Shown here one piece after another: positions 3,190-41,485 of a DNA stretch of 45,713 nucleotides. Position numbers and translations under genes: made by a program. Under the pieces are notes generated by a model. The model was not told where the DNA came from and searched no databases. It was given only the letters and a program-made list of their open reading frames with translations. The DNA lies in the UHGV virus genome UHGV-0265688. The stretch is one strand, 5' to 3'. The stretch comes from a virus. Every line of letters begins with the position of its first letter. The stretch's first letter is position 1.

Positions 3190-3390
3190 GTGGGCATAAA
3201 GTGTTGCAAAGATTGTGTAGCACCTAAACGCCATGCGGGTTGTCACGCCACTTGCGCCGAATACCTCTCCGAGAAGAAAGCACACGATGAACTCAGGGAG
3301 AAAGAGCGCAAGTGGCGTGAAGCCGCAAATAGTTTGTATGTGCAAAGGTCAAAAGGTGTTCAGAGGGCTTTGCGGAGCAGGAGGAAATGA
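3190..3390 (+). CDS. small Cys-rich, basic protein (CC-x2-C...C-x3-C, putative zinc ribbon)
   Basis: GTG start, no clear RBS. Four Cys in the first 25 aa, lysine/arginine-rich tail. Stop is 1 nt before the next start. Confidence 0.3.
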   Translation: MGIKCCKDCVAPKRHAGCHATCAEYLSEKKAHDELREKERKWREAANSLYVQRSKGVQRALRSRRK

Positions 3391-3391
3391 A

Positions 3392-3679
3392 ATGGAGATT
3401 GCTAAGGACGATAAAGGGAAAGCCAAGCTGTCCCTTGTCCCTGTTCAAATTATCCGTGATATTGCGGTTGTCCGGGAGTATGGAACGGAAAAATACCATG
3501 ACCCGGATAATTGGAGGAAAGTCGAACTGCAACGGTATGTAGACGCTTTTTACCGCCACTGGCTTTCCTTCGTTGAAGATCACCGCTCAAAGGACGCTGA
3601 GAGCGGTATCGAACATTATAAGCACATGGCCTGTAATATGGCGTTTATCTGTGAACTGATGAAGGAGGGAGACCAATGA
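3392..3679 (+). CDS. dATP/dGTP pyrophosphohydrolase N-terminal domain-like protein
   Basis: RBS GGAGCAGGAGGAAATGAA then ATG 3392. Sequence KLSLVPVQIIRDIAVVREYGTEKYHDPDNWRKV resembles phage dNTP diphosphohydrolase N-domain. Memory-based. Confidence 0.35.
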   Translation: MEIAKDDKGKAKLSLVPVQIIRDIAVVREYGTEKYHDPDNWRKVELQRYVDAFYRHWLSFVEDHRSKDAESGIEHYKHMACNMAFICELMKEGDQ

Positions 3680-4248
3680 CAGAACGGGAAAGATTGCAGT
3701 TATTTGAAGCCGCTGGTCTTGATAAGATTATCTCTCAGGACTTCAAAACCTATCTGCTGGCGAATGGGTTCTTCCGCTCCCCGGCAAGCACAAAATACCA
3801 TGGAGCTTACGAGGGAGGGCTGTTCGACCATTCTCTGATGGTGATGAACTCTCTGGTAGACCTGTCTGCGAAGAATGGTCTGAAATGGCAGAGAGCCGAA
3901 AGCCCCTTCATCGTAGGTATGTTCCATGACCTATGTAAAATCGACCAGTACCGTCACCCGGTTAAAGAAATCATTGCAGATTGGTATGGGGAGTGTCCTG
4001 TCTATGACGAACAGGCGTGGGAATACAACCCCGACACTGCTATCAAAGGACATGGTGACAAGTCGGTCATTCTTCTCTCTCAGTACATGACGCTGACCGA
4101 GGAGGAAGTCATGTGCGTTCTTCATCACATGGGTGCTTTCACCGACCGGGAACATTGGCGTGAGTTCACCAATGCTGTACAGAGATTCCCGAATGTGCTC
4201 TGGACGCACCATGCGGATATGATCGCTTCCCATGTGGTAGGTGTCTGA
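3676..4248 (+). CDS. HD-domain phosphohydrolase
   Basis: H..HGAYEGGLFDHSL then MFHDLCK motifs (HD metal ligands). ATGA overlap with upstream gene. Confidence 0.65.
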   Translation: MTERERLQLFEAAGLDKIISQDFKTYLLANGFFRSPASTKYHGAYEGGLFDHSLMVMNSLVDLSAKNGLKWQRAESPFIVGMFHDLCKIDQYRHPVKEIIADWYGECPVYDEQAWEYNPDTAIKGHGDKSVILLSQYMTLTEEEVMCVLHHMGAFTDREHWREFTNAVQRFPNVLWTHHADMIASHVVGV

Positions 4249-4585
4249 TATGCCGGTTTTCAAAAGAAACAGGGGTCGTATCTTCGGAGTACAGTTCAGC
4301 GCAAAGGAACAGAAAGCCATAGACGCTGAGATTCTTCGCCAATGCGCCGAGTTCGACAAAAAGAATGAGCATGAAATGGACGCTCTGATTTTATGGCTAC
4401 TCCATGAAAAGTTCGGTTTTGGAAAGAAACGCTTACGGGCTTTTTACGACAGCTTTTCCACCGAACTGGACGCTCTTGTGAAGCGGTATGAAATGGGTGA
4501 CGAGGACAAAGCGTGGCTGTGTGCTTACAAATTAAAACAATACGGCATTGACATTGCCGAATGGAATGAGGAGGTCAGAGAATGA
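4241..4585 (+). CDS. hypothetical protein
   Basis: Complete ORF, overlapping start/stop with neighbours (operon). Confidence 0.45.
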   Translation: MSDMPVFKRNRGRIFGVQFSAKEQKAIDAEILRQCAEFDKKNEHEMDALILWLLHEKFGFGKKRLRAFYDSFSTELDALVKRYEMGDEDKAWLCAYKLKQYGIDIAEWNEEVRE

Positions 4586-4812
4586 ATTACAGGCTGAAAA
4601 ATACGAACGGAAAGGTGACTTTCCTGCTTCGCACTGGAAAAGACTTGGTGAAAAACCAGATGGCGATTGCGTCTGCCCAGCACATCATTGACCATGGGAA
4701 GCTGCTGAAATCGGATGTCAGCGGCTACCCCATCAACATCGACAACAAATGGTACTTTGAGGGCGAGGTTTCCAAGAGGACAGCTCCCCGCAAAGCGGAG
4801 GGTGAAGAATGA
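4582..4812 (+). CDS. hypothetical protein
   Basis: ATGA-coupled ORF. Confidence 0.4.
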   Translation: MNYRLKNTNGKVTFLLRTGKDLVKNQMAIASAQHIIDHGKLLKSDVSGYPINIDNKWYFEGEVSKRTAPRKAEGEE

Positions 4813-5102
4813 GGACATACTACTCTGACTATATCCAGCACTGCATGAGATTTTATGCCAGACACCCTAACCCGAAGTTTCGTTCTGACGCTGATAAGCA
4901 GAACTGGTACGCCTGTGAACACGCTCTAAAGGGTTTCGCTGACGCTGACAGGGACATTCTGCTGTTTATCTACCGGGAGGGTGATACCATTCCTGATAAT
5001 GTTTACAGGGTGTCTGTGCAGAAAAACATCAAGCAGGACAAGATTTGGGCTTTGGTAAACGAGTTGGAGCGCAAAATTGCAAAAAGGAGGAGCCTGATTT
5101 GA
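4809..5102 (+). CDS. hypothetical protein
   Basis: ATGA-coupled ORF. Its stop TGA overlaps the TTG start of the primase. Confidence 0.4.
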   Translation: MRTYYSDYIQHCMRFYARHPNPKFRSDADKQNWYACEHALKGFADADRDILLFIYREGDTIPDNVYRVSVQKNIKQDKIWALVNELERKIAKRRSLI

Positions 5103-5887
5103 CACGATACGAGAACATACCCGAAGAATTGAAAAGGTTGAATCAATGGGTCTGTACTCGCAGTGACAGCAAGGTTCCGATGAAAGCGTTTGAGCGGGAA
5201 GCCGCTTCCTCCACCAATCCAGAAACATGGTCTTCCTTCGACACGGCTCTCAAGGCTGTGTCGGAGGGACACTATGACTACTGCGGGTTCGTCTTTAACG
5301 ACAATGGTTATGTGGGAATTGACATAGACGATGGCTACGATCAGGACGGGTTTCTGTCCCCGCTGGCGGCTGAAATCATAGGGTTGTGTGAAAGCTACAC
5401 CGAGAAGTCCAAGAGCGGTAGGGGCTTTCACATTCTCCTTAAAGGGACACTCCCTTTTAAGGGAAAAAACAACCTCGCAGGAGTGGAGATTTACAAGGCG
5501 GCTCGGTACTTCATCATGACTGGCGATACGCTCTTATATGACACCATTGAGGAAGACCAAGGTGCGATTGACTATGTGATAGAGAAGTTCTTTCCCGAAA
5601 CCAGAGAGGAAAAAGACGGGGAGCGGTACGGAGGTCGGATTTATTCACCGATATGGGCATGGCCTGAGAACAACCGAATCAAACTTCGTCCCGTTTATCC
5701 CCGGATTCCAGACGGGAGCAGAAATATCTGTCTGACCTCGCTGGCGGGTATGTTACACAATCAGGGTTACAGCAAGCAACAGATTTACGATGAACTTCTG
5801 TATGCGAACATGGTAGCCTGTGACCCGCCCCTTGACCGAAATGAGATTAGAACTATCTGCAACAGCGTCACCCGATACAAAAGATAG
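5099..5887 (+). CDS. DNA primase, prim-pol (bifunctional primase/polymerase N-domain) plus PriCT_1 C-terminal domain
   Basis: TTG start 5099, 6 nt after AAGGAGGAG, TTGA-coupled to the previous stop. Motifs GFVFNDNGYVGIDIDDG, SKSGRGFHIL, GVEIY..RYFIMTG (prim-pol). GSRNICLTSLAGML (PriCT_1). The track's TTG 5045 start lacks an RBS. Confidence 0.6.
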   Translation: MTRYENIPEELKRLNQWVCTRSDSKVPMKAFEREAASSTNPETWSSFDTALKAVSEGHYDYCGFVFNDNGYVGIDIDDGYDQDGFLSPLAAEIIGLCESYTEKSKSGRGFHILLKGTLPFKGKNNLAGVEIYKAARYFIMTGDTLLYDTIEEDQGAIDYVIEKFFPETREEKDGERYGGRIYSPIWAWPENNRIKLRPVYPRIPDGSRNICLTSLAGMLHNQGYSKQQIYDELLYANMVACDPPLDRNEIRTICNSVTRYKR

Positions 5888-5926
5888 GATATAACACGAA
5901 AAAGATAAAAATTATTCCCACAAGGG

Positions 5927-5955
5927 TTGACAAACAATCTTTTTCGTGTTATTAT
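5927..5955 (+). promoter_or_regulatory. sigma70-type promoter TTGACA-N17-TATTAT driving the mazF-dam-thyX block
   Basis: TTGACA 5927-5932, 17-nt spacer, TATTAT 5950-5955, in a 120-bp AT-rich gap. Flanking sequence is homologous to the promoter region at 11395-11500. Confidence 0.55.
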
Positions 5956-6006
5956 CTAATCACAAAAGGACAATAAATTGTCTTAATTAGATTGGGAGGT
6001 AATTTT

Positions 6007-6474
6007 ATGGTTCAAGAATATTGCCGGGGAGACATTTTCTTCATCACAGAAGGTACATACACTGGCTCGGAGCAGAGCGGCGGCAGACCCGGTGTTATCG
6101 TCTCGAACGATCTCGGCAACAAGCACTCGCCCAATGTTGAGGTTGTATTCCTCACCTCACGAGAAAAGAAGCCCATGCCGACCCATGTAGAGGTGCTGTG
6201 CAAAGTTCCGTCTACTGCGCTCTGCGAGAACATTCAGACGGTCTCAAAAGAGCGACTGGACACTTTTATCCGCTCTTGCACTACGAGTGAAATGAAGAAC
6301 ATCGACCATGCGCTCCTGTGTTCGCTCGGTCTTCACGCTCCTGCGGCTGTCGGGGGGGGGACTCAGGTTTCCGCTTCTCCTTCGACAGAGGTTTCAAAGG
6401 CCGAAATCGAGCGGGATTTGTTCAAGAATTTGTATGAACAGCTTTTAGACAAAGTGATGGTGAATAAACCTTGA
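6007..6474 (+). CDS. mazF: MazF/PemK/EndoA-family endoribonuclease toxin with ~45-aa C-terminal extension. No adjacent antitoxin.
   Basis: ATG 6007 after GGGAGGTAATTTT. GDIFFI...GSEQSGGRPGVIVSNDLGNKHSPNVEVVFLTS...PTHVEV...IQTVSKERLDTF closely parallels B. subtilis EndoA/NdoA. Extension begins at a G9 tract (6352-6360). Confidence 0.75.
   Translation: MVQEYCRGDIFFITEGTYTGSEQSGGRPGVIVSNDLGNKHSPNVEVVFLTSREKKPMPTHVEVLCKVPSTALCENIQTVSKERLDTFIRSCTTSEMKNIDHALLCSLGLHAPAAVGGGTQVSASPSTEVSKAEIERDLFKNLYEQLLDKVMVNKP
6352..6360 (+). repeat. G9 homopolymer at the junction of the MazF domain and its C-terminal extension
   Basis: ggg ggg ggg encodes GGG in AAVGGGTQ. Long mononucleotide tract. Candidate slipped-strand or sequencing-error hotspot. 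Confidence 0.6.
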
Positions 6475-6485
6475 ACACTGATGTA

Positions 6486-6936
6486 ATGTTTAGTAGCAAA
6501 ACCGATGATTGGGCAACACCACAAGATTTCTTTGACAAATTGGATTTAGAATTTCAGTTCACACTCGACCCATGCGCCGATCTTCATAACCACAAGTGCG
6601 CTCGGTATTACAACCGGGAGCAGGACGGTCTATCTCATGATTGGGGGGGAACGAGTATTCTGCAATCCCCCATACGGAAAAGAAATCGCAAAATGGGTTC
6701 AAAAATCTTTTGAGGAAAGTCGTAAGAAAAACACGCTCGTGGTTATGCTCATTCCAGCAAGAACTGACACAAAGTATTTTCACGACTTCATATACGGGAA
6801 GGCCGAGATAAGATTCATTCGTGGGCGGTTAAAGTTTGGAAATGCGAAAACCGCCGCTCCCTTCCCCTCCATGGTCGTGATATTCAGAAATGAGGAGGAT
6901 TCCAATGACAGTAACACTCATACAGGCAACGCCTGA
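6486..6936 (+). CDS. dam: Phage Dam-type DNA N6-adenine methyltransferase, interrupted by a frameshift at a G7 tract (6643-6649). Intact ~155-aa reading frame if the tract were G6.
   Basis: Frame A: MFSSKTDDWATPQDFFDKLDLEFQFTLDPCA...SHDWGG. Frame B (+1): ERVFCNPPYGKEIAKWV...LVVMLIPARTDTKYFHDF. NPPY catalytic motif. Removing one G yields SHDWGERVFCNPPYG. Start could also be TTG 6471. Confidence 0.6.
6643..6649 (+). repeat. G7 homopolymer at the dam frameshift point
   Basis: ttggggggga. The two halves of the methyltransferase are in frames 0 and +1 on either side. Confidence 0.6.
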
Positions 6937-7525
6937 CCCCATCGAAACCATTGCGAAAATCGCAAGTATCTGCTATGACAGCGACCCCAAGAACCCGCTC
7001 GGACTGGTGAAACACCTGTACCGCAATGGACATCACAGTGTCTTTGAACACATCTATTTTACCTTCAAAATCGAGGGTATCTCTCGTGCCTGTTCTCACC
7101 AGCTCGTGCGGCACCGGCACTGTAGTTTCACTCAGAGGTCTCAGAGGTACTGTTCCGAGGACGGTTTCAAAGTCGTGTGTCCCGGCACTGTCGTTGCCAT
7201 GGGTGGGCAGTATGACTACGGAGCCGTAGTGAATCGTATCTCAGAGTTTTACGAAGAAGCTCAACAAGTCGGTATTCCCAACGAGGACGCAAGGTACATT
7301 CTCCCCAACGCCTGTGAGACCTCGATGTATCTCTCCTGCAACTTGAGAGAGCTTATTCACATGGCGAACGAGCGACTGTGCATGAGAGCGCAGTGGGAAA
7401 TCCGGGAGCTGGTACAACAGATGGTCTACTGTGTGAACGCTGACCTGTGGTTCATGCTGGTTCCCAAGTGTAAGAGCGGTCGTATTATCTGCAATGACCC
7501 CTGTGGGAAAGTAGGTGCTTTGTGA
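6905..7525 (+). CDS. thyX: Flavin-dependent thymidylate synthase ThyX
   Basis: RBS GAGGAGGA then ATG 6905. HHSVFEH and the RHR...S..Q.SQRY ThyX signature (QLVRHRHCSFTQRSQRY). Start overlaps the dam 3' end. Confidence 0.8.
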   Translation: MTVTLIQATPDPIETIAKIASICYDSDPKNPLGLVKHLYRNGHHSVFEHIYFTFKIEGISRACSHQLVRHRHCSFTQRSQRYCSEDGFKVVCPGTVVAMGGQYDYGAVVNRISEFYEEAQQVGIPNEDARYILPNACETSMYLSCNLRELIHMANERLCMRAQWEIRELVQQMVYCVNADLWFMLVPKCKSGRIICNDPCGKVGAL

Positions 7526-7683
7526 TGGACGAAGGCAATAAAATCTGCCCTCTCTTTTACGCTTCTTCGGAGTGTAACACTCTAAAGGCTTGTGAGTGCC
7601 AGAAAGAGAGATGCGCATGGTGGGTTGAGGATAAACAGAAATGCGCTATTGCAGTAGGAGGTGAACGCAGTCGTGGCAAGTGA
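7525..7683 (+). CDS. 52-aa Cys-rich small protein (MDEGNKICPLFYASSECNTLKACECQKERCAWWVEDKQKCAI...)
   Basis: ATG overlaps the thyX stop (TGATGG). Seven Cys. Below the ORF-track cutoff. 3' end overlaps the primase-helicase start region. Confidence 0.3.
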   Translation: MDEGNKICPLFYASSECNTLKACECQKERCAWWVEDKQKCAIAVGGERSRGK

Positions 7684-9196
7684 TAGAGAGCTTTTTGAAC
7701 TCCGCAACGGAAGGGTTATCATGGACGAAGACCTGTCCGAAAAAATGTATATCATCAAGTCATATCACCCTGAGAAAGCCGATGAAACCAGTTCCGGGTT
7801 TGAATGGTCGGAAATGGGCATGGCAAACCTGTTTGGTATGCTCTACAACCGGGAAGCCCGATACTGCACAGAGCATAAGAGCTGGTACACCTACTTCGAG
7901 GGCGCATGGCGCAAAGACGAGGGGGCAATCCTTGTCTCTGAGAAAATCAAGGACTTTGTGCGGCTGATGATTCTCTACTGCGGGGAGATCGTGGACGATG
8001 AAATCCGAAAAGCCTACACCTCTTTTGTGAACAAAATGGGTGACAGGCGCATGAGGGACAGAATACTCAAAGACGCTACAGGCGAGCTTCGTATCTCTGC
8101 CACTGAGTTTGACGCTGACCCATACCTTATAAACTGTCTGAACGGCACCTACTCCCTCCGGGATTTTTCTTTTCGGGAAGCTAAGTGGGACGATTTTCTC
8201 ACCATGCAGACCAATTTTCGTCACACTGTCCGCAGGGACATCAAGTGTGAACGGTGGGAGCAGTTTATTGACGAAGTTACACAGGGCGATAAGGACAAGG
8301 CCGATTTCCTACAACGCTCCCTTGGTTATTCTATCCTTGGTATGAGCAATGAGGAGTGTATGTTCATTCTTCATGGTAAAACGACCCGTAACGGAAAATC
8401 CACCTTGCTCAACACCATTGAAACCATGCTTGGTGATTACGCCAAGGTTGCACCTGTCGGTATGATCTGCCGGGGAGACAGGCAGAAGGACGCAGAAGCG
8501 GCTTCCCCTACCCTTGCTGGTCTAAAAGGCAAGCGGTTTGTTACCATGTCGGAAAGCAATGAGTACGGTAAACTGGACGAGGAGAAAATCAAGCATTTTA
8601 CAGGCGGTGAAGAAATTTCAGCTCGTGCGCTGTACCAGTCAGCAATCACTTTCAAACCGCAATTTACGCTCTGGCTTTCCTGTAACGACCTGCCCATGGT
8701 GACAGACAAGAGCTTGTTCGCTTCGGAGCGTATCAAGGTTATTGAGTTTAACCGGCACTTCTCCCCCGCCGAGCAGGACACGCACCTTAAAGACGAGCTT
8801 ACTTCTCAGGAAGCCATGAGCGGTATCTTCATGTGGCTGGTGCGTGGGTACATCAAGTACAAAGAGCATGGGCTTACCATGTCGGAGCCGCTAAGGTCTG
8901 TCGTGGCAAGGTATGAGCGAGACAATGACCTTGTGCTCCAATTCCTTGAAAACCGCTGTGTACGGGTTCCAGAGGAAGAATACAACCCGCTTGGTGAGAA
9001 GAATAAGTGGACAACTATCAGAGCCAAAGACCTCTACCAAGCGTTCAAAATATGGGCGAAATCCGAGGGTGCTTATGTACTCTCTGCAAGAAAATTCAAC
9101 TCTGAAATGGAGCGTCACCCTGAGTGGTTTGACCGCAAATCGACTTCCAGCGGTTTCGTAATCTATTGGGGCTTGAAGCTCAAGGAGATAGTGTGA
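7661..9196 (+). CDS. Phage/plasmid primase-helicase, P4/D5 family (D5_N plus SF3 P-loop NTPase)
   Basis: Walker A ILHGKTTRNGKST, Walker B-like VTMSES. Typical D5 C-terminal region. Start ambiguous (GTG 7661/7673 after GGAGGTG, or ATG 7721). Confidence 0.75.
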   Translation: MNAVVASDRELFELRNGRVIMDEDLSEKMYIIKSYHPEKADETSSGFEWSEMGMANLFGMLYNREARYCTEHKSWYTYFEGAWRKDEGAILVSEKIKDFVRLMILYCGEIVDDEIRKAYTSFVNKMGDRRMRDRILKDATGELRISATEFDADPYLINCLNGTYSLRDFSFREAKWDDFLTMQTNFRHTVRRDIKCERWEQFIDEVTQGDKDKADFLQRSLGYSILGMSNEECMFILHGKTTRNGKSTLLNTIETMLGDYAKVAPVGMICRGDRQKDAEAASPTLAGLKGKRFVTMSESNEYGKLDEEKIKHFTGGEEISARALYQSAITFKPQFTLWLSCNDLPMVTDKSLFASERIKVIEFNRHFSPAEQDTHLKDELTSQEAMSGIFMWLVRGYIKYKEHGLTMSEPLRSVVARYERDNDLVLQFLENRCVRVPEEEYNPLGEKNKWTTIRAKDLYQAFKIWAKSEGAYVLSARKFNSEMERHPEWFDRKSTSSGFVIYWGLKLKEIV

Positions 9197-9197
9197 T

Positions 9198-9368
9198 ATG
9201 GAAAATGAGTGCATGATGTGCGACTTTAATGACCCTGACTTCGGCTGTACCTGCCCTTCTTCCGAAATGTGGTACGCTTGCCTTCTTACTCCTGACCCGT
9301 CACCAGAAGATTTTATGACAGAGGAGGATTTTAGCAATGGCACGATACTTCAAACTGATCGAAATTGA
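9198..9368 (+). CDS. 56-aa Cys-rich small protein
   Basis: ATG 9198 overlaps the upstream stop. MENECMMCDFNDPDFGCTCPSS. Below the ORF-track cutoff. Confidence 0.3.
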   Translation: MENECMMCDFNDPDFGCTCPSSEMWYACLLTPDPSPEDFMTEEDFSNGTILQTDRN

Positions 9369-9534
9369 CCGTGATAGTTTTATCGAAGCCACTGGCGAAG
9401 ACTTGGATTGTTATTCTCAGTTGGTTGTTCCTGTAGATGGGTTGGTATATGGCGCAGTCGATGATACCGATGAAGAAGAACTCGCTGTTCCATTGTACAC
9501 TTTTGACACCGCAGTCAACGGCGAGGAGGATTGA
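9337..9534 (+). CDS. small acidic hypothetical protein
   Basis: RBS AGAGGAGGATTTTAGCA then ATG. Confidence 0.4.
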   Translation: MARYFKLIEIDRDSFIEATGEDLDCYSQLVVPVDGLVYGAVDDTDEEELAVPLYTFDTAVNGEED

Positions 9535-9536
9535 TT

Positions 9537-9740
9537 ATGAACGCAAGCTGTATTGACGAAAACGCTAAGTTCAAGCTCTGCCCTTATCGTGTCTACACCG
9601 AAGAACACCCACCTATTCTGCGTGGGAACGGGGCGATCACTACTCAGCAGTTTTATCCCTGTTTGGGAGAAGCGTGTGTTGCGTATCATGTGGGTGTTTG
9701 TCTTAGACTGTCAAAGCGTGTGAAGGAGGTATCGAAATGA
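9537..9740 (+). CDS. small Cys-rich hypothetical protein
   Basis: RBS GAGGAGGATTGATT then ATG 9537. Confidence 0.35.
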   Translation: MNASCIDENAKFKLCPYRVYTEEHPPILRGNGAITTQQFYPCLGEACVAYHVGVCLRLSKRVKEVSK

Positions 9741-9997
9741 AAATCAAAGTTGAGCATGAAGTTTCTCCCGAAAAAGAAACTTGCACTCACGATGGAGACT
9801 TTTGGGGAAAGAGCGTTTGTCGGTATCATACCCACAAGGATAGAACGCATGGTAGAAAGGCTCCTATTGAGCGACACCTGCCCAAATGTACACTGTTTGA
9901 CTGCTGGCTCGAAAAAGATTATATGAAATGCGAAGCCTGTAAAAAGGCGTGTGATAAAGCCGAAGGAGAGAAAGATGTTTGCGATACAAAATATTAA
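9737..9997 (+). CDS. small Cys/His-rich hypothetical protein (putative zinc-binding)
   Basis: RBS GAAGGAGGTATCGAA then ATG. Many C/H residues. Confidence 0.4.
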   Translation: MKIKVEHEVSPEKETCTHDGDFWGKSVCRYHTHKDRTHGRKAPIERHLPKCTLFDCWLEKDYMKCEACKKACDKAEGEKDVCDTKY

Positions 9998-10241
9998 GAC
10001 AGGTAAGTTTGTGTATGGCACAGACTATCGGTATTTCCCTCGACACCAGCGCACAAGCAGAACTCAAATGCGCACATACAACTGTTTGAATCTTGCACGA
10101 GCCGACTTTATCTCTCGTGGGTGTGGTAACGATTACCGCATTGTATGTCTCAAGAGCGTGGAGGTCGAACGAGTGATCGAGTTTGATTCTCCCGATGGAT
10201 ATGAGCTACAAAATGGTGATTGGGGGTCGGACGATGAATGA
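9975..10241 (+). CDS. hypothetical protein
   Basis: ATG 9975 after GAAGGAGAGAAAG. The track's ATG 9951 has no RBS. Confidence 0.35.
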   Translation: MFAIQNIKTGKFVYGTDYRYFPRHQRTSRTQMRTYNCLNLARADFISRGCGNDYRIVCLKSVEVERVIEFDSPDGYELQNGDWGSDDE

Positions 10242-11516: not shown

Positions 11517-11747
11517 ATGAGAAAATACGAATTGATCCCGGCAGACGGTAGAAAAAGCTTTTACGGGAAAGCGGTTGTAATTGTGGAGGACAACGGGACA
11601 GAAACGCTATACAGCTACGGAACGCCCATTATTAAAAGGCTTGTTTCCGGGGAATTAGTCAAGCTGTGGAGCGATTGGACAGCAACGACAGGCCGACACA
11701 TTAAAGCGTTTTGCGGATTGAGCAAAGCGGAATATATGAGCTTGTAA
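11517..11747 (+). CDS. hypothetical protein
   Basis: RBS AACGGAGGTTTTCAAA then ATG. Composition shifts here (GGG, CGG, CCG codons, A-runs). Confidence 0.45.
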   Translation: MRKYELIPADGRKSFYGKAVVIVEDNGTETLYSYGTPIIKRLVSGELVKLWSDWTATTGRHIKAFCGLSKAEYMSL

Positions 11748-14437: not shown

Positions 14438-15019
14438 GTGAGCCACATGAAGGTGGGGTATGTGCGGGTGAGCACCGTTGAGCAAAACCTTGCCCGGCAG
14501 TTGGAGCTGATGAAGACCCTCGGTGTGGAGAAAATCTACTGTGATAAAATGAGTGGGAAAAACACTGAGCGCACTGAGTTTAAGGAAATGATGGAGTTCC
14601 TGCGGGAGGGTGACACCCTGTATGTGGAGTCCTTCTCCCGGCTTTCCAGAAGCACCCTCGACTTCTTAAACACTGTGAGCAAGTTACAGGCCAAGAGCGT
14701 GAATCTTGTGTCCGACAAGGAAAAGATGGATATGTCCACTCCGCAAGGTAAGTTCATGGTGACGGTGTTTGCCGCACTCTCCGAGCTGGAACGAACCAGT
14801 ATGCTTGAGAGACAGCGGGAGGGAATTGAGATTGCCAAGGCCGAGGGGAAATACAAAGGGCGAAAACCCATTCCCGCCAATGAAAAGTTCTTTGCGGTGG
14901 CAAATGCTTGGGCGGGAGGTAAGATCGCTCTCAAAGACGCAATCCGGGAGTCTGGTATGTCCTCCTCCACTTTCTTTCGCAAATGTAAGCAGTATGAAAT
15001 CAGCAAAAGAAGTAGTTAA
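14438..15019 (+). CDS. Small serine recombinase (resolvase/invertase family, N-terminal catalytic domain plus C-terminal HTH)
   Basis: RBS CAGGAGGTGAGCCAC then ATG. VGYVRVSTVEQ catalytic-Ser motif, SRLSRS, C-terminal HTH. Its TAA stop lies inside the terminal repeat of element B. Confidence 0.75.
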   Translation: MSHMKVGYVRVSTVEQNLARQLELMKTLGVEKIYCDKMSGKNTERTEFKEMMEFLREGDTLYVESFSRLSRSTLDFLNTVSKLQAKSVNLVSDKEKMDMSTPQGKFMVTVFAALSELERTSMLERQREGIEIAKAEGKYKGRKPIPANEKFFAVANAWAGGKIALKDAIRESGMSSSTFFRKCKQYEISKRSS

Positions 15020-31845: not shown

Positions 31846-33780
31846 ATGAGCTGGGCAGAAGCAAAATGGGTGGTAGATAATATCCTGCAAAAGACAGGAC
31901 AGGCACCCAACAACATGAGAGCGTTTACCGCTTTCGCAAAATCCAGCACCACCATTGGGCTGAGATTTCTGGAACCCGAAGACAGCTATGACAGCGTAGG
32001 TAATCTGCTCTGTTCGGTCGGCGGCGTAATGATTCGCATGGGTGAAGATGGCTACCCCGCCAGCACCACCGAAGGTACGCTGGTTATCGACAACAAAGAG
32101 CTTGGAAAATATGCAACCGAGGAGTACACCGTGAGCGGTCTGACCGAGGGGAAGACCTACTACTTCTCCGCTTTCCCGTATTCCTCTCAGGGCGTGTACA
32201 ACCTGTCAAGCAATGAGAAAAACCGGGCGAGTGCCGCTCCTGCCGATGGGGAAACGGCAAATGTCACCATCAACATTGACGATGACAGCGCATTTAACAG
32301 CGTCACAATCACCTGTGTGGACGAGACGGACGGGCAGTACACCAAGACCGCCACTCTCACCAAGACGCAGAAAAAGGCTTCTTTCACCGTCCCCATCGGA
32401 CACACCTATCACATCGAGTACGGTGCGGAGGACGGGTATTCCAAGCCTGAGAACACCGAAGTCAAGGTGTCTGTGGCGGGTGCTGTATCGAACTATGAAG
32501 CAACCTACTACTATTTTACCGCCACCATTGATGTCACCTACCCGGCAGGAGCGACCTGTACCTGCTCCCTCGATAGCACGACCTATACCGCAACCGGCAC
32601 CAGCGGCAGGTATCAGTTCAAGGTACACAAGGTCGGCACATGGACTGTGAAAGCGACCAGCGGCGGCGAGTCCGCTTCCGAGCAGGTTGTGATTACATCG
32701 GATGGGCAGAGCGAAACGGTGGAGCTGTCTTTTGTGAAAATCTTCGGTATCAGCCGGGATATTAAAGCGTCCTCCCCTGTGTGGGCGAGAACCGACATGG
32801 CAGTGGGCATGACCGCCACCGCTTCTATCGGCACAAACGCAGGTCACAGCGATTTCGATGATGTCATGCCTTGGAAGGGCATGGTGCGGGAAACCCTCTC
32901 TACCAACGATGTGATGGTGAAAATCCCGAAATTCTACTACCGCCGCTATCGTGAGGGGACGGTTGAGCACATTCAGATCGCAGACAAGCCTACGGCTGGT
33001 TTCTCGGTACACCCCCTGTTCAATCACGCAGGTCGGGAGTGCGACCATGCCTATGTGGGTGCGTACAAGACTTCCAGCAACAATAAATCCGTCTCCGGGG
33101 CAAGTCCGCAAGCGTCACAGACAAGAGCCACTTTCCGCAGTAACGCCAAGGCGAAGGGCGCAGGATGGAGCCTGATTGACATTGCGGCGGTGTCTGCCAT
33201 TCAAATGCTCATGCTGGTGGAGTTTGCAAACAACAATGTGCAGAGCGTTATTGGCAGAGGATATTGTGACGGAAGCAGCGGCTCGCTGAGAACCGGGTCT
33301 TGCAACAGCGTTCCCAACCTCACCGGCAGACCTTCTGGCACAGACGGTAAGACCGGAGTTGTCTACAGAGGTATCGAGGACTTCTGGGGCAATGTATGGG
33401 AATGGGTCGATGGCGTGAACTGGAACGGCGGCACTTACTACATCTGCAACGACCCTTCCAAGTACGCTGACGATACTGCAACCGGCTACACTCAGCTTTC
33501 CTTCAAGGGAGCGACAAACTGGGGTAGCTCCTATATCACCGAGGAGGGTCTGGACACCGGGGCAAATCCCCATGTCATGCTTCCTTCTGCGGCTGGTAGC
33601 GGCAGTGAGTCCACTTATATGTGTGACGCTTGTTGGAGTAGCACAGGATGGCGGGTGTTCCGGCACGGCGGTTATTGGGTTAATGGGTTGGAGTGCGGTC
33701 TGTTTACGGCTGATTTGTACTACACTTCGTCTGATTCCGGCGCGCGCGTTGGCTCTCGCCTGCTTTATATCCCCTCCTGA
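31846..33780 (+). CDS. Tail fiber / receptor-binding protein with C-terminal C-type-lectin / FGE-sulfatase-like domain. This is the target gene of the diversity-generating retroelement (DGR).
   Basis: ATG overlaps the upstream stop (TAAATGAG). C-terminal RGIEDFWGNVWEWVDG is the FGE/CLec-fold signature, the fold used by DGR variable proteins such as Bordetella phage Mtd. The last ~40 codons are the variable repeat. Confidence 0.7.
   Translation: MSWAEAKWVVDNILQKTGQAPNNMRAFTAFAKSSTTIGLRFLEPEDSYDSVGNLLCSVGGVMIRMGEDGYPASTTEGTLVIDNKELGKYATEEYTVSGLTEGKTYYFSAFPYSSQGVYNLSSNEKNRASAAPADGETANVTINIDDDSAFNSVTITCVDETDGQYTKTATLTKTQKKASFTVPIGHTYHIEYGAEDGYSKPENTEVKVSVAGAVSNYEATYYYFTATIDVTYPAGATCTCSLDSTTYTATGTSGRYQFKVHKVGTWTVKATSGGESASEQVVITSDGQSETVELSFVKIFGISRDIKASSPVWARTDMAVGMTATASIGTNAGHSDFDDVMPWKGMVRETLSTNDVMVKIPKFYYRRYREGTVEHIQIADKPTAGFSVHPLFNHAGRECDHAYVGAYKTSSNNKSVSGASPQASQTRATFRSNAKAKGAGWSLIDIAAVSAIQMLMLVEFANNNVQSVIGRGYCDGSSGSLRTGSCNSVPNLTGRPSGTDGKTGVVYRGIEDFWGNVWEWVDGVNWNGGTYYICNDPSKYADDTATGYTQLSFKGATNWGSSYITEEGLDTGANPHVMLPSAAGSGSESTYMCDACWSSTGWRVFRHGGYWVNGLECGLFTADLYYTSSDSGARVGSRLLYIPS
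33647..33766 (+). repeat. DGR variable repeat (VR) at the 3' end of the tail fiber gene
   Basis: Gap-free ~120-bp alignment to 33861-33980 (offset 214). 22 mismatches lie at TR adenine positions; 1 mismatch is not at an A. Confidence 0.8.
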
Positions 33781-33785
33781 GGGGG

Positions 33786-33808
33786 TGTGGGGGATTTCCT
33801 CCCCCACA
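33786..33808 (+). other. GC-rich hairpin immediately downstream of VR (TGTGGGGGA-tttcc-TCCCCCACA)
   Basis: Perfect 9-bp stem 6 nt after the tail-fiber stop. DGR target sites commonly carry such a hairpin/cruciform downstream of the initiation-of-mutagenic-homing region. Confidence 0.55.
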
Positions 33809-33860
33809 TAAGTGGGCGAACACACCGTATTGAAAATCGAAACACGCTAAGGCGAACAGT

Positions 33861-33980
33861 AAAAGCGAGTGTTCCAACACGGCAGTAATTGGAATAATGG
33901 GTCGAAATGCGGTCTGTTTACGGCTAATTTGAACAACACTTCGTCTGATTCCAACACGAACATTGGCTCTCGCCTACTTT
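33861..33980 (+). repeat. DGR template repeat (TR), noncoding, A-rich (AAC-codon-phased) copy of the VR
   Basis: See VR. TR has A where VR has G/T/C at 22 positions (for example CCAACACGAACATT versus CCGGCGCGCGCGTT). Lies between the target gene and the reverse transcriptase. Confidence 0.8.
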
Positions 33981-34095
33981 TGTTAAAAGGTAATATCATT
34001 GGTCGCTGTTTCGCCGTACCCATTGGTAAAAAATAGTTTGGAGGGACAGGGTTAGTAGGTTCACTCTCGAAAACCCTGTAAGAAACAAAAAGCAG

Positions 34096-35193
34096 ATGAA
34101 AAGGTTTGGATTCCTCTATGAACGGATAGTTTCAGTGGAAAATTGCAGACTGGCTATCCTCAACGCTTCTCAAAAGAAGAAAAAGCGAAAAATGGTGAAA
34201 GAAGTCCTTGATAATTTGGAGCATTACGCCAACGACCTTTCCGAGCGAATGAGCCGCATGGATTTTCTCTCCCCATATAAGACCCGTATCATCAAGGACG
34301 GGTTATCTGGAAAAGAACGGGAACTGCAAGTCCCAGCGTTCTACCCCGACCAGTGCGCACACCACGCCATTATGCAGATTCTCAAGCCGATTATTGAGAA
34401 ATCGTCCTACCGATGGAGTTGCGCCAATATCCCCAACCGGGGCATTGACCTTGCTTGCAAGGGTGTGGAGAGAGCCACTGTGCGGGACAGGAAACACGCT
34501 AAATATTGCGTGAAAATGGACATTAGCAAGTTCTACCCGTCTATTCCTCATGGCAAGCTGAAAGCCCGACTGCGAGAGAAAATCAAAGACGAAAAGGCTT
34601 TGCAAATCATCTTCAAGGTGATTGACTCCCACAATCCGGGGCTTCCCATCGGGAACTATACTTCCCCTTGGCTGGCAGAACTATACTTGCAACCGCTGGA
34701 TTACCTTATCAAGCAAAAGCACCGAATACGACACTATATCCGCTACGCTGACGATCTGGTGCTGATAGACAGCAATAAACGAAAACTGAGGAAAGCTCTT
34801 CACGACATTTTCCTATTTGTGGAGGAGCTGGGCATGACAGTGAAACACGACTACCAGTTGTTTCGTATTCAGCCATACTGCAAGGAACGGACAGGCCGCA
34901 GGGGACGGAAGATAGATTTTGTAGGGAGGTGTTTCGGAATTGGTTTTACCACCATCCGAAAGAGGAGGGCGTTGGCACTTATGCGGCAGAGCAGGTTTAT
35001 TCAGAAGCTACAGCGGCAGAACCGGCCTGTCTCATACAGAATGGCTTCCGGGTTTCTCTCCCGGTGCGCCTGTTTCAAGCACACCAATTCATACGCCATG
35101 AAGAAAAAGTACTATGAAACGGTCAACATCAAAAAGTTAAAGGAGGTTGTTAGCAATGAGAGTAAGAGGAAATGTCTCGCCCAACTCGCTTAG
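34096..35193 (+). CDS. DGR-type reverse transcriptase
   Basis: N-terminus FLYERIVSVENCRLAILNASQKKKKRK typical of DGR RTs. Motifs QVPAFYPDQ, SPWLAELYL (SP.LAN-like), catalytic YADD (IRYADDLVLI). Confidence 0.8.
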   Translation: MKRFGFLYERIVSVENCRLAILNASQKKKKRKMVKEVLDNLEHYANDLSERMSRMDFLSPYKTRIIKDGLSGKERELQVPAFYPDQCAHHAIMQILKPIIEKSSYRWSCANIPNRGIDLACKGVERATVRDRKHAKYCVKMDISKFYPSIPHGKLKARLREKIKDEKALQIIFKVIDSHNPGLPIGNYTSPWLAELYLQPLDYLIKQKHRIRHYIRYADDLVLIDSNKRKLRKALHDIFLFVEELGMTVKHDYQLFRIQPYCKERTGRRGRKIDFVGRCFGIGFTTIRKRRALALMRQSRFIQKLQRQNRPVSYRMASGFLSRCACFKHTNSYAMKKKYYETVNIKKLKEVVSNESKRKCLAQLA

Positions 35194-37927: not shown

Positions 37928-37958
37928 AGAGGAGGTGGGCGTTTAACCTACCTCCTCT
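37928..37958. terminator. bidirectional hairpin terminator (AGAGGAGGTgggcgtttaACCTACCTCCTCT) overlapping the integrase stop codon
   Basis: 9-bp GC-rich stem. T-rich on the minus strand beyond it (GTTTTGTTTGTAAATTATT). Confidence 0.5.
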
Positions 37959-39490
37959 ATATTCATAACAAACCCGAAACAGTGTTTTACAAAAAACAAG
38001 GTGTTCGGATTTGCACCTTTTGGTGGAGCCACACACGCTATATCCGAACACGAAAGTGTAGCTGTATTCTGTCCTGACATATTGAAGGTAAATACGATTC
38101 TTCTCCCCTTATCCCCATCGTCATAGATATATACGGAGTTCACCAGTGTGTCTATCACTCTGCGTCTGTACTCAATATCATTCACATTACCACTCTTGAA
38201 CGAATTGAGCCAGTGCATTATGCGCTCTTTCGTCAGGAGTGGTTTTTTCATTTCCTCACGAGCAATCTTCCCCTCCAAGTCGTTCTTCTCAGCTTCCAGC
38301 TCGTCCATTCGTTCCTTGGTGGTGGGTGTGATTATCCCCTGTTCGATGGCGTTCATGAGGTTTTTTATTTTCTTCTTAATGTCTTTCAGCTCGTTTTGAA
38401 GTCCGTTGAGGTAAGAGGTGTCAGCCGACTCCTTTTCGATAATCTCCATGGTCTTTCTGGCAATACGCTCTATGGTTTCATCATTCAATACATTTTGAAC
38501 GGTGAACCGCACCACCAGCTCCTCTATCCAATCCTTTTTCTCCACCGCCTTTTTGCACTTGTGATTTCGCTTACGGTCAATGCACTTGTAGTAGTGGTGG
38601 AGCTTGCCCGATCTGGAAGTGCCGCTTTCTCCGACCATGGAGGAGCCGCAATGACCGCAGAACAATTTTGTGGTGAGAAGATAATCGTCTTTAGCCTTAT
38701 TCCTCGCACGAGCCGAATAGTTGTGCCTGAGAGTGGCTTGGACTTTCTCAAATAACTCCCGGCTTATGATAGGCGGCACACCGTCCTCTACCACAACATC
38801 TGCGAAACGGTAGACCCCGATATACCTGTCGTTTTTCAGCATTGTGCGCAGACTGTTTTTGTTAAAGGCGTTCCCTCGTGAGGTTTTATACCCTCGTCTG
38901 TTGCACTCGTTGATAATCTGAGTTGCCGACATACCATCTGCATACATCTGAAAGATTTCTTGTACAATTTTCGCCCCAACGGGGTCGATTTTATACTTTC
39001 TATCTTCCCCTACAGTGTAGCCCAAGGGCATACCTGCCCCTCCTACGGCAAGGCACTGTAGGGCATTTTCTTTTAATCCTCGCTTGATGTTCCGGGACAG
39101 GTTCTCTGAATAGTATTCTGCGTACCCTTCCAGCACTGATTCCAGGATAATCCCTTCCGGGGTATCAGGCATGGGCTGTTTGGCGTAATAGACTTTCACG
39201 CCATTCTTTTTCAGCTTTGCTTTGTAAATAGCTGAATCATATCGGTTTCGGGCAAAGCGGTCAAGGGTGTACATTATCACCGCTTCAAATTGCCCCTTTT
39301 CACTGTCCTTTATGAGCCTTTGAAAGTTTGGACGATTATCGGTTTTACCTGAGATTGCTCTGTCGCAATATTCACCGATGATCGTCATTCCATTTTTCAG
39401 TGCAAAGTCGTGACACTCACGGAGCTGTCCCTCTATGGATTCCTCTCTCTGGTTATGGCTCGAATATCTGGCATAGATTACCGCTTTCGT
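37943..39490 (-). CDS. Large serine recombinase (phage integrase). No canonical start codon upstream of the catalytic serine.
   Basis: Minus-strand frame reads ...TTKAVIYARYSSHNQREESIEGQLRECHDFALKNGMTIIGEYCDRAISG then recombinase domain and a zinc ribbon (CGHCG...YYKC) with coiled-coil. The track starts at ATG 39388, downstream of the YARYSS active site. RBS GGAGGTGAT at 39493-39501. Codons between it and YAR are ACT ACG AAA GCG GTA ATC, with an in-frame TAA at 39512-39514. Confidence 0.65.
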   Translation of the reverse strand, partial: TKAVIYARYSSHNQREESIEGQLRECHDFALKNGMTIIGEYCDRAISGKTDNRPNFQRLIKDSEKGQFEAVIMYTLDRFARNRYDSAIYKAKLKKNGVKVYYAKQPMPDTPEGIILESVLEGYAEYYSENLSRNIKRGLKENALQCLAVGGAGMPLGYTVGEDRKYKIDPVGAKIVQEIFQMYADGMSATQIINECNRRGYKTSRGNAFNKNSLRTMLKNDRYIGVYRFADVVVEDGVPPIISRELFEKVQATLRHNYSARARNKAKDDYLLTTKLFCGHCGSSMVGESGTSRSGKLHHYYKCIDRKRNHKCKKAVEKKDWIEELVVRFTVQNVLNDETIERIARKTMEIIEKESADTSYLNGLQNELKDIKKKIKNLMNAIEQGIITPTTKERMDELEAEKNDLEGKIAREEMKKPLLTKERIMHWLNSFKSGNVNDIEYRRRVIDTLVNSVYIYDDGDKGRRIVFTFNMSGQNTATLSCSDIACVAPPKGANPNTLFFVKHCFGFVMNIEEVG

Positions 39491-41079: not shown

Positions 41080-41485
41080 AGATACTTCTATGGCTATCAG
41101 GGGGGGGCAAGTGAAATCGGGCGAAAGGGTGCGATTGCCAAAATCATTCTACGAACACCCTCTGACTGCAAAAGAAGCGCAATTTGCCGAAGATAATCTT
41201 TACATTGTCTGGTGGTACTTGGATCGGCGGGGACTTGACCGGGAGGAATGGTTCGATGTAGTGATTTTACGCTATCTGATAAGTGTAAAACGGTGGTTTG
41301 CCCTCCCCGATTTGCAAAAAGTGAAGTTCGTCACTGTGGCCTGTAATGCTATGAAATCAGCCATCGGAAATGAATGGCACAAAAGGGCTAATGAACCTAA
41401 GATTGTTAGCTTATATGAATCTATTCCCGGAACAGATGATTTGCTGTATATCGACACAATAGCGGCTTCGGAGATTTTTTTTTAA
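41056..41485 (+). CDS. Sigma-70 region-2-like (ECF-like) small protein, possible late-gene regulator
   Basis: RBS GAGGAGGTGTCACGCA then ATG. AEDNLYIVWWYLDRRGL...EEWFDVVILRYLISVKRW...VACNAMKSAIGNEWHKRANEPK parallels the ECF sigma region 2 pattern (DLVQE.FL..W..LD.F....F..WL..IARN..ID..RRR). No region 4 evident. G8 tract at 41100-41107 near the 5' end. Confidence 0.35.
41100..41107 (+). repeat. G8 homopolymer inside the 5' end of the sigma-like gene
   Basis: atcaggggggggcaag encodes RGG. Third long G tract in the window. Confidence 0.55.

Follow-up and report, generated by a model that had tools for sequence, protein, structure and literature searches.

Variable G tracts set the reading frame of a MazF tail and of a Dam methyltransferase in a temperate phage of gut Clostridia

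In the viral genome UHGV-0265688 a MazF/EndoA-type endoribonuclease gene without a recognisable antitoxin partner encodes a C-terminal tail whose reading frame is set by a tract of nine G residues, and the Dam methyltransferase gene that follows it is frameshifted at a second G tract. The genome (45,713 nt) was analysed as a whole; it is called the window below, and all coordinates refer to it. The region forms the promoter-proximal end of a conserved operon that lies within the replication module of a temperate siphovirus of gut Clostridia. The lengths of both tracts differ among close relatives. On genome comparison the MazF and Dam tracts look like contingency loci, and we infer that they switch reversibly within phage populations. 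A function is argued from their maintenance at the nucleotide level, their recurrence in different forms at the same sites and their concentration in the accessory genes of one operon. On balance we lean towards the explanation that an antitoxin-less, self-regulated MazF has here a phase-switchable tail and a phase-switchable Dam neighbour. Retrieved loci and proteins are designated by L and P numbers, respectively.

The MazF core and its C-terminal tail

The following parts of the MazF gene were distinguished.

6007-6474, + strand: MazF/EndoA-type endoribonuclease, whole gene (Pfam PemK_toxin PF02452, E 2e-19, residues 7-103)
6007-6330, + strand: MazF/EndoA-type core, residues 1-108 (Pfam, PDB, AlphaFold2, Foldseek)
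6331-6384, + strand: disordered, variable linker, residues 109-126 (predicted local distance difference test score, pLDDT, below 50 for residues 112-125)
6352-6360, + strand: G9 tract, encoding Gly-Gly-Gly in the linker and setting the reading frame of the tail
6385-6474, + strand: C-terminal amphipathic helix, residues 127-152, motif AEIERDLFKNLYEQLLDKV, plus stop codon (conservation, AlphaFold2)

An initial annotation of the window, made from the sequence without database searches, had called this gene an EndoA/MazF endoribonuclease, and all comparisons supported the assignment. The protein scored 70.1 bits against PF02452 (cutoff 23.1), and its core matched Staphylococcus aureus MazF in the PDB with an E-value of 3e-19. 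The core was modelled by AlphaFold2 with pLDDT above 90 as an SH3-like barrel, for which Foldseek returned 4mzm_A (template modelling (TM) score 0.84, root-mean-square deviation (rmsd) 2.2 Å); superposition on the S. aureus and Bacillus subtilis MazF structures gave TM scores of 0.81-0.85. Arg27 and Thr50 aligned with the catalytic Arg and Thr of the Bacillus and S. aureus enzymes, which we take to be Arg25 and Thr48 in B. subtilis MazF. In family alignments T50 was invariant and R27 invariant or nearly so.

The 45-residue extension with an amphipathic helix, also reported in the initial annotation, is present; the helix is conserved and lies behind a disordered linker. In the AlphaFold2 monomer model, which was built from a diverse alignment (an alignment restricted to at least 60% identity gave pLDDT 55), helix 127-152 had a pLDDT of ~80. 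Across the family the spacer linking core and helix is variable in sequence, and its length lies between ~20 and 80 residues. The helix is as conserved as the core, at nearly every position and on all faces, polar residues included, and its hydrophobic residues recur at 3-4 spacing. The motif E-x-ERD-[LIV]-[YF]-K-x-LYEQLL, within a helix of ~20 residues, is kept down to ~40% core identity; over 100 clusters have it, as do subfamilies whose cores are 38-62% identical.

The PHROG family phrog_1936 ('MazF-like growth inhibitor', category 'moron / host takeover') covers the whole protein (profile match 7-153), and the tail alone matched positions 153-184 of the phrog_1936 profile. An exhaustive HMMER search of 1.84 billion representative sequences returned 905 matches at E<=1e-30, and most of the top 150 matched through the tail. 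As judged by these profile matches, the tail is a feature of a large phage and prophage family comprising hundreds of 50% clusters. Relatives of the protein were found in prophages of gut Clostridia such as Blautia, Fusicatenibacter, Coprococcus and Lawsonibacter, in metagenome-assembled genomes of Faecousia, Acetatifactor and Oscillospiraceae, and in the cultured Faecalibacterium phages FP_Lagaffe and FP_Brigit. Proteins gp50 of FP_Lagaffe and gp83 of FP_Brigit are members of PHROG 1936, and belong to the same family with the tail included. FP_Lagaffe gp50 is 44% identical to the window MazF, has the tail motif ETERDLYRNLYNELL and is encoded in a replication module beside DNA methyltransferases. 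Unlike that of the window MazF, the linkers of the FP_Lagaffe and FP_Brigit proteins contain no repeat.

A separate observation concerned four proteins (P0121, P0122, P0274 and P0275; 266-287 amino acids (aa)), in which two MazF domains are arranged in tandem in one chain without the ERD tail. These are apparently covalent pseudo-dimers.

The possible RNA target was approached through UACAU, presumably the motif cut by the closest characterised MazFs. UACAU occurs 24 times on the sense strand of the window where ~39 occurrences are expected (z ~ -3.3), and its reverse complement is not depleted. The depletion is modest and, with the target motif assumed from other MazFs, only suggestive as a hint of the RNA cleavage specificity of this enzyme.

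Length variation of the linker tract

The G9 tract had been noticed in the initial annotation as the join between core and extension, and it indeed occupies that place. In the 45.7 kb there are just four runs of six or more G residues, of which this block has two, and no C run of that length. For comparison, 80 viral loci were retrieved through the MazF protein, a sample that by construction consists of MazF carriers and leaves out relatives lacking the gene. In the relatives the tract was G7 (3 loci), G8 (6), G9 (~24), G10 (8), G11 (3) or G12 (1). Only G9 and G12 place the tail in frame, which was thus the case in ~25 loci and not in 20. When two sublineages were scanned at the DNA level without regard to frame, the tail was in frame in 4 of 8 and 7 of 13 genomes. 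All lineages without a linker repeat were in frame.

Other repeats were found at the same position. In loci L059-62 this part of the linker holds a (GA)n repeat, L059 and L060 being out of frame relative to L061, L062 and P0104, and the linkers of distant subfamilies contain G tracts as well (G10 in L074, G7 in L073-78).

Frame changes were concentrated at these sites. Relative to genomes 96-98.5% identical to it, the window differed by uncompensated coding indels at the two G tracts only. The closest genome, L397 (jgi Ga0495776_097627), is 99.8% identical and circularly permuted, and over 20.4 kb differed by 17 substitutions and four indels: a G10 tract in MazF, a 15-nt tandem duplication at 6391 in the tail region, a G8 tract in Dam, and an A5 to A6 change at 11552. 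Three of the four are thus in MazF or Dam, and two of those at the tracts. The prim-pol, ThyX and D5 genes together showed three frameshifts across all loci, indicating that the general assembly quality of these contigs is good. As a homopolymer control, A6 runs were invariant in close relatives, yet they are too short for a fair comparison with G9; a T9 run was not conserved in the relatives.

The linker tract has stayed a homopolymer while synonymous sites around it are scrambled. Among 61 alignment columns with an invariant residue only four had the identical codon in 11/11 lineages, and in these lineages the five glycines that never change in the core are encoded by all four codons; the linker tract is still pure G. 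GGG makes up 20% of the glycine codons of the genome, whose only GGG-GGG-GGG is that of the linker. The pure homopolymer and the recurrence of repeats at this site point to maintenance by selection rather than chance. Simulated length changes of both the MazF G9 and the Dam G7 tract, which lie inside open reading frames (ORFs), shifted the frame, and the lengths are polymorphic among relatives (G7-G12 in MazF, G7-G13 in Dam), genomes 96-99.8% identical included.

Dual coding at the MazF tract was considered and rejected: the out-of-frame tails are conserved neither in length nor in sequence, and some stop right after the tract.

Another G tract was seen outside the block. It is an intergenic G8 tract at 41100-41107, directly upstream of the gene at 41111-41485 (phrog_37022), and probably lies inside the ribosome-binding region of that gene.

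The Dam gene and other methyltransferases

6471-6936, + strand: T1-type Dam DNA adenine methyltransferase (PF05869 in two halves)
6643-6649, + strand: G7 tract at the Trp-Gly-Gly site of Dam, length variable among relatives

The Dam start codon overlaps the MazF stop codon (TTGA). The gene is split by a frameshift at the G7 tract into two ORFs, 6471-6713 and 6637-6936, which match PF05869 positions 7-62 and 61-146, respectively; the NPPY motif is present, and the ORF is not intact. The initial annotation had listed Dam and ThyX as the second and third genes of the block. Both identities were correct; an intact Dam gene, which that listing implied, is not present. A tract of G6 or G9 would restore a single ORF of 154/155 aa.

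In L001, L002, L007 and L042 the tract is G9, and the gene is in frame and intact; in the window, L003, L006 and L039-41 it is G7 or G8 and out of frame. Phages at least 96% identical display all four combinations of MazF tail and Dam in the on and off states, tail and Dam being in or out of frame independently of each other; the window is in the state with tail on (G9) and Dam off (G7). Tracts of G7-G13 at the Trp-Gly-Gly site occur in many lineages (47-99% identity), and in other lineages the codons at this place are interrupted. Because a protein-based scan is biased towards in-frame genes, it was replaced by a frame-blind DNA scan (CATGATT followed by at least seven G), which detected 34 Dam genes, of which 21 were in frame and 13 were not.

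The cultured phage FP_Lagaffe (L214, NC_047911) has its Dam gene (~5870-6331) split at a G7 tract at position 6025, at the same Trp-Gly-Gly site. In this phage G8 would be in frame, and the gene is annotated only as its C-terminal 97 aa, gp54. A methyltransferase of a second family, phrog_757, which in some relatives occupies the place between MazF and D5, contains a (GA)n repeat (L008 7308-7350, L037 7307-7340, L063 7362-7380); these repeats are (GA)18, in frame, (GA)6, in frame, and (GA)14, out of frame.

P0030 is a deletion variant in which the MazF core (to ...SLGLH) runs straight into Dam at ...LHNHKC as a fusion; the tract in this Dam is G10, likewise out of frame.

Avoidance of restriction sites is extreme in the window, where many of them are all but missing. 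Observed and expected numbers were 0 and 106 for ACGT, 0 and 49 for CTAG, 5 and 152 for CGCG, 2 and 100 for GCWGC, 0 and 75 for GGWCC, 1 and 63 for CCWGG, and 1 and 60 for GAGGC, and many 6-mers do not occur at all. GATC is depleted in part only (55 observed, 146 expected), and the 55 sites that remain fit a phage depending on Dam at some times only.

Absence of an antitoxin gene

That no MazE-like antitoxin is encoded next to MazF, as first noted from the list of ORFs, was borne out on both strands by Pfam, by the antisense ORFs and by Rfam. Pfam detected no MazE, AbrB, ribbon-helix-helix (RHH) or Phd protein among the non-structural genes of the window (the structural genes at ~15.8-34 kb were outside the scan), and no antitoxin family in the seven antisense ORFs of 5888-7620, in a 53-aa ORF preceding D5, or in the tail alone. 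Rfam found no RNA in the block, either at the gathering threshold on the whole window or at E<=1 on 5700-7800. The antisense open stretches of the block are not conserved between relatives, and no PADLOC defence model matched. In those distant tail-bearing MazFs whose surroundings were examined, the neighbouring genes were mutually unrelated and none matched antitoxin families. No recognisable cognate antitoxin gene adjoins MazF, which is preceded by 119 bp that include a promoter. Since the defining partner is absent, this MazF stands outside the type II MazEF modules.

Relatives without the tail differed in this respect. The tail-less canonical MazFs (Streptomyces, Acholeplasma-like) had an overlapping upstream MazE of the RHH or AbrB type, and an Acetatifactor MazF, 54% identical and with another C-terminus, was preceded by an AbrB/SpoVT-like ORF. 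That ERD-tailed MazFs lack MazE and tail-less ones have it fits replacement of MazE by the helix, and so does the conservation of the helix on all its faces. This complementary pattern, seen in few cases, suggests such a replacement and is the best indirect support for it.

The 53-aa ORF is Cys-rich (motif C..C...C.KE.CAWW...C) and is conserved in 27 loci. It had no Pfam, PHROG or PADLOC match. It was always located within the prim-pol-D5 cluster, either directly before D5 or, in L057, L061 and L079, directly upstream of MazF. As a candidate antitoxin it was judged unlikely: it is absent from all other contexts of tail-bearing MazFs.

Promoter, gene order and genome context

5099-5887, + strand: prim-pol primase with PriCT_1 C-terminus (Pfam PriCT_1 E 1e-10; PHROG DNA primase families E 3e-46)
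5891-5906 and 5937-5952, strand not assigned: arms of a perfect 16-nt inverted repeat, ATAACACGAAAAAGAT / ATCTTTTTCGTGTTAT, bracketing the -35 hexamer
5927-5955, + strand: sigma-70/sigma-A type promoter TTGACA-17-TATTAT with TG-extended -10 (11/12 matches)
6890-7525, + strand: flavin-dependent thymidylate synthase ThyX (PF02511, E 3e-59, 200 bits, profile positions 1-185/191)
7522-7683, + strand: 53-aa Cys-rich ORF whose ends overlap the stop of ThyX and the start of D5
7661-9196, + strand: D5-type primase-helicase (Pfam D5_N, DUF5906, Pox_D5)

The clean promoter ahead of the block claimed earlier is there, in the 119-bp gap after the prim-pol gene, and is conserved in relatives. It was the only site scoring that well in 4000-10000, a region in which the total number of promoter-like sites was not above that of shuffled sequences. 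The same promoter was found 52-76 nt upstream of MazF in nearly all loci of the lineage, diverged relatives included, and because of this conservation it was accepted as real. The 16-nt inverted repeat is likewise kept in diverged relatives; in L008 and L018 it is changed on both arms. It is a possible operator, RNA hairpin or replication-origin element.

The initial annotation had regarded MazF, Dam and ThyX as a three-gene island inserted between the primase and helicase genes. This interpretation was not supported. The order small ORF, prim-pol, MazF, D5 was the same in 65/65 loci of the lineage, all of them retrieved through MazF, with D5 80-100% identical, and the genes after MazF alone varied; prim-pol was kept upstream of MazF in L001-L064 and L079. 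Between MazF and D5 there was nothing in L057-62 and L079; elsewhere this interval held ThyX (31 loci), phrog_6721 (213-235 aa, no assigned function; 28 loci), Dam (10 loci), dCMP deaminase, the phrog_757 methyltransferase and others. By gene order, the prim-pol/D5 junction is a cargo slot in which Dam, ThyX and the like are exchangeable, and MazF is a fixed gene of the lineage and no recent insert. The accompanying claim that prim-pol and D5 are fused elsewhere is correct: they form one protein in ORF35 (770 aa) of Lactobacillus phage A2.

The prim-pol gene begins with TTG at 5099, overlapping the stop codon of the preceding ORF. The ThyX match extends across the full PF02511 domain. The D5 helicase has no close cultured relative; its best annotated phage matches are ~30% identical. 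The window is a complete temperate siphovirus-like genome that also encodes a YqaJ exonuclease, a MazZ-like domain, an amidase endolysin, a holin, a large serine recombinase and a diversity-generating retroelement. The MazZ-type dATP/dGTP diphosphohydrolase N-terminal domain (PF18909) is located in the gene at 3233-3679; together with ThyX and, in relatives, dCMP deaminase, it suggests manipulation of the nucleotide pool. There are two serine recombinases, a small resolvase (14438-15019, + strand) just before the packaging genes and the large integrase (37943-39388, - strand). The retroelement spans 33651-35193, with the reverse transcriptase (RVT_1) at 34096-35193, the template repeat at 33865-33980 and the variable repeat at 33651-33766, at the 3' end of a 644-aa gene (31846-33780). 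Of the mismatches between the two repeats 19/20 are on template adenines, and an Rfam RT-18/RT-17 RNA lies at 34012-34099.

Discussion

In the explanation that we favour, the two tracts would act as phase-variation switches, so that one phage population could hold all four states of tail and Dam. MazF would be expressed from a strong promoter of its own upon infection or induction and would cut RNA, either to shut off the host or to turn over phage messages, and its activity would be regulated by the tail helix itself. Slippage at the linker tract would yield a subpopulation with a tail-less enzyme. With Dam on, the 55 remaining GATC sites would be protected from GATC-cutting restriction; with Dam off, methyl-dependent restriction would be avoided. 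As for how the helix regulates MazF, it is quite conceivable, if somewhat short of an even chance, that it inhibits or clamps the MazF dimer as a tethered element, in place of the missing MazE. A stronger form of this idea, that the helix is a tethered antitoxin and the linker tract a selected stochastic switch which uncouples toxin and antitoxin in some genomes or, by polymerase slippage, in some transcripts, we consider unlikely. If true, it would make this a phase-variable single-chain toxin-antitoxin by which a temperate phage hedges between a benign and a host-killing or shut-off state, while independently phase-variable methylases hedge between methylation-sensitive and methylation-dependent host restriction.

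Several observations weigh against this explanation or parts of it. The pooled in-frame share of the MazF tail (11/21) is not significantly above the neutral one third. The intergenic tract ahead of 41111 varied from G8 to G14 (mode G10) in 51 relatives, thus equally, and variability alone is therefore no proof of function; some of the length differences could be assembly errors at long G runs. The UACAU test presupposes that this MazF has the specificity of its characterised relatives. Contacts between tail and core are unreadable from the AlphaFold2 monomer model, and the BFVD models of viral homologues, in which no consistent placement of the tail was found, superpose on the core only, with rmsd above 15 Å once the tail is included. 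The profile of the helix found no MazE in the PDB, its sole, non-significant resemblances being leucine zippers, and the helix is nearly neutral in charge, unlike the acidic tails of MazE. Seen as a candidate single-chain toxin-antitoxin, the protein has a conserved helix on a disordered tether, with no similarity to MazE and no consistent placement in the BFVD models. Finally, genomes with the tail off are common and include a bacterial genome assembly, L095, in which a MazF of one of the distant subfamilies is truncated at the linker tract; tail-less MazF is accordingly not lethal to phage or lysogen, or is silent in lysogens.

The main rival to a tethered inhibitor is a zipper or partner-binding role. 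The tail would then be a positive element that MazF needs, a coiled coil pairing the tails of dimers or oligomers or a handle for a replication protein or ribosome partner, and slippage would merely toggle MazF function as in a classical phase-variable gene. The 3-4 spacing of hydrophobic residues fits a coiled-coil tail, and the best PDB resemblances, none significant, are to the leucine-zipper segments of MafA ('ERDLYKEKYEKL') and MYPT1 ('FKKLYEQIL'). The tail-off genomes, frequent, viable and in one case bacterial, are easily explained if off means null, and the lack of consistent docking on the core in the predicted viral homologues agrees with such a role. Canonical MazFs, however, function as dimers without a helix of this kind, the near-total conservation of the helix, polar positions included, suggests enclosure in a groove over a simple zipper, and the complementary distribution of MazE and tail is left unexplained; we regard a positive role as doubtful. 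A more sceptical alternative holds that the tract lengths have no biological role and reflect neutral slippage or assembly error at G runs that owe their existence solely to the glycines required in the linker and to the Trp-Gly-Gly motif of Dam, which would shrink the finding to an ordinary phage MazF-like gene beside a Dam pseudogene. The equal variation of the intergenic tract, the statistical compatibility of 11/21 with one third, and lineages that have lost the tract and are fine all agree with it. What makes it rather improbable in our judgement is that the tract is pure G amid scrambled synonymous sites in a genome where GGG accounts for only 20% of the Gly codons, and that a harmful tract could be removed by a single synonymous change. 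Moreover, one and the same linker position holds different repeats in unrelated subfamilies, two methyltransferase families that are not related to each other carry repeats in one slot, other genes of the same contigs are almost never frameshifted, and the cultured reference phage FP_Lagaffe is in the same Dam off state.

Two further explanations leave the tail or the operon in a different role. An antitoxin could act in trans, either the 53-aa ORF, which belongs to the MazF operon in the window, or a host MazE/EndoAI, with some other role for the tail. Directly before MazF, as in L057, L061 and L079 (in L079 with an ATGA overlap), the 53-aa ORF would be in the canonical antitoxin position, but it is absent around MazF in L065-L078, L080, FP_Lagaffe, FP_Brigit and bacterial prophages, is dissimilar to every antitoxin family searched, and in the lineage of the window is coupled to D5, not to MazF; this is very improbable. 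Alternatively, MazF could be a prophage defence module of the lysogen, a single-chain toxin-antitoxin like CapRelSJ46 whose tail is released on superinfection and leads to abortive infection. The strong conserved promoter of the gene, the tethered conserved element in a single polypeptide, the frequency of the gene in prophages of gut Clostridia isolates and the PHROG category speak for such a module. Against it, there is no match to any PADLOC defence model, and the inverted repeat across the promoter points to repression. MazF also lies within the replication operon, where its translation is coupled to that of Dam and D5 comes next, so that the promoter probably serves lytic replication genes. 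A defence function appears quite improbable.

The window MazF can be compared with several known systems. With EndoA/MazF of B. subtilis and S. aureus (4MDX, 4ME7, 4MZM) it shares the fold of the ~110-residue core (E ~1e-19, 42% identity); unlike these, it has no mazE, carries the 45-residue helix extension, belongs to a replication operon and has a hypermutable G tract in the linker. CapRelSJ46 and EzeT, which occur on mobile elements and prophages, also combine a toxin domain with a tethered C-terminal element and have no separate antitoxin gene. The likeness is in layout only: the toxin fold is another one, and autoinhibition of the window MazF is inferred. To our knowledge, no frame-switching repeat has been described in the tether of such systems. 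Phage T4 RegB is a sequence-specific endoribonuclease related to toxins of toxin-antitoxin systems and works without an antitoxin in lytic growth; unlike the window MazF it has a RelE/YoeB-like fold, no tail and no repeat. In Campylobacter myoviruses, variable tracts reportedly lie in receptor-binding genes. Hypermutable polyG tracts of Campylobacter phages (Sorensen et al. 2021, Cell Rep 35:109214) are cited in PMC12823448 as reference 58. They resemble the present tracts in being variable, located within genes, frame-switching and associated with subpopulations; unlike them, the tracts described here belong to temperate phages of Clostridia and lie in methyltransferases and in the linker of a toxin. 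In phasevarions methylation is turned on and off by a simple-sequence repeat in the ORF of a Mod/Type III methyltransferase of Haemophilus, Neisseria or Moraxella (PMC6902483). Those methylases are encoded on bacterial chromosomes and control the expression of host genes, whereas the enzymes found here (T1-type Dam, phrog_757) are orphan phage enzymes, most plausibly with an anti-restriction role. In the full-text literature we found no paper on a fused MazF toxin-antitoxin, on the MazFs of FP_Lagaffe or FP_Brigit, or on phase-variable phage methylases. The protein belongs to the MazF family and to PHROG 1936; the apparently switchable tail and methylases are the main new point.

MazF toxins are defined by their antitoxin partner. 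Here is a large, unstudied family of phage MazFs that has lost the partner and acquired a conserved helix on a tether, and it offers a simple test case for the control of a toxin within a single polypeptide and for the use of an mRNA interferase by phages. Repeat-driven on/off switching is familiar from bacterial pathogens and reportedly acts in Campylobacter phages on receptor-binding genes; in gut phages it seems to act on the toxin regulator and on at least two families of orphan methyltransferases. If this is confirmed, populations of gut phages would be mixtures of epigenetic and toxin states, with consequences for the prediction of host range, for host assignment by methylome, and for annotation, since such genes routinely end up as pseudogenes or fragments, an example being the FP_Lagaffe reference.

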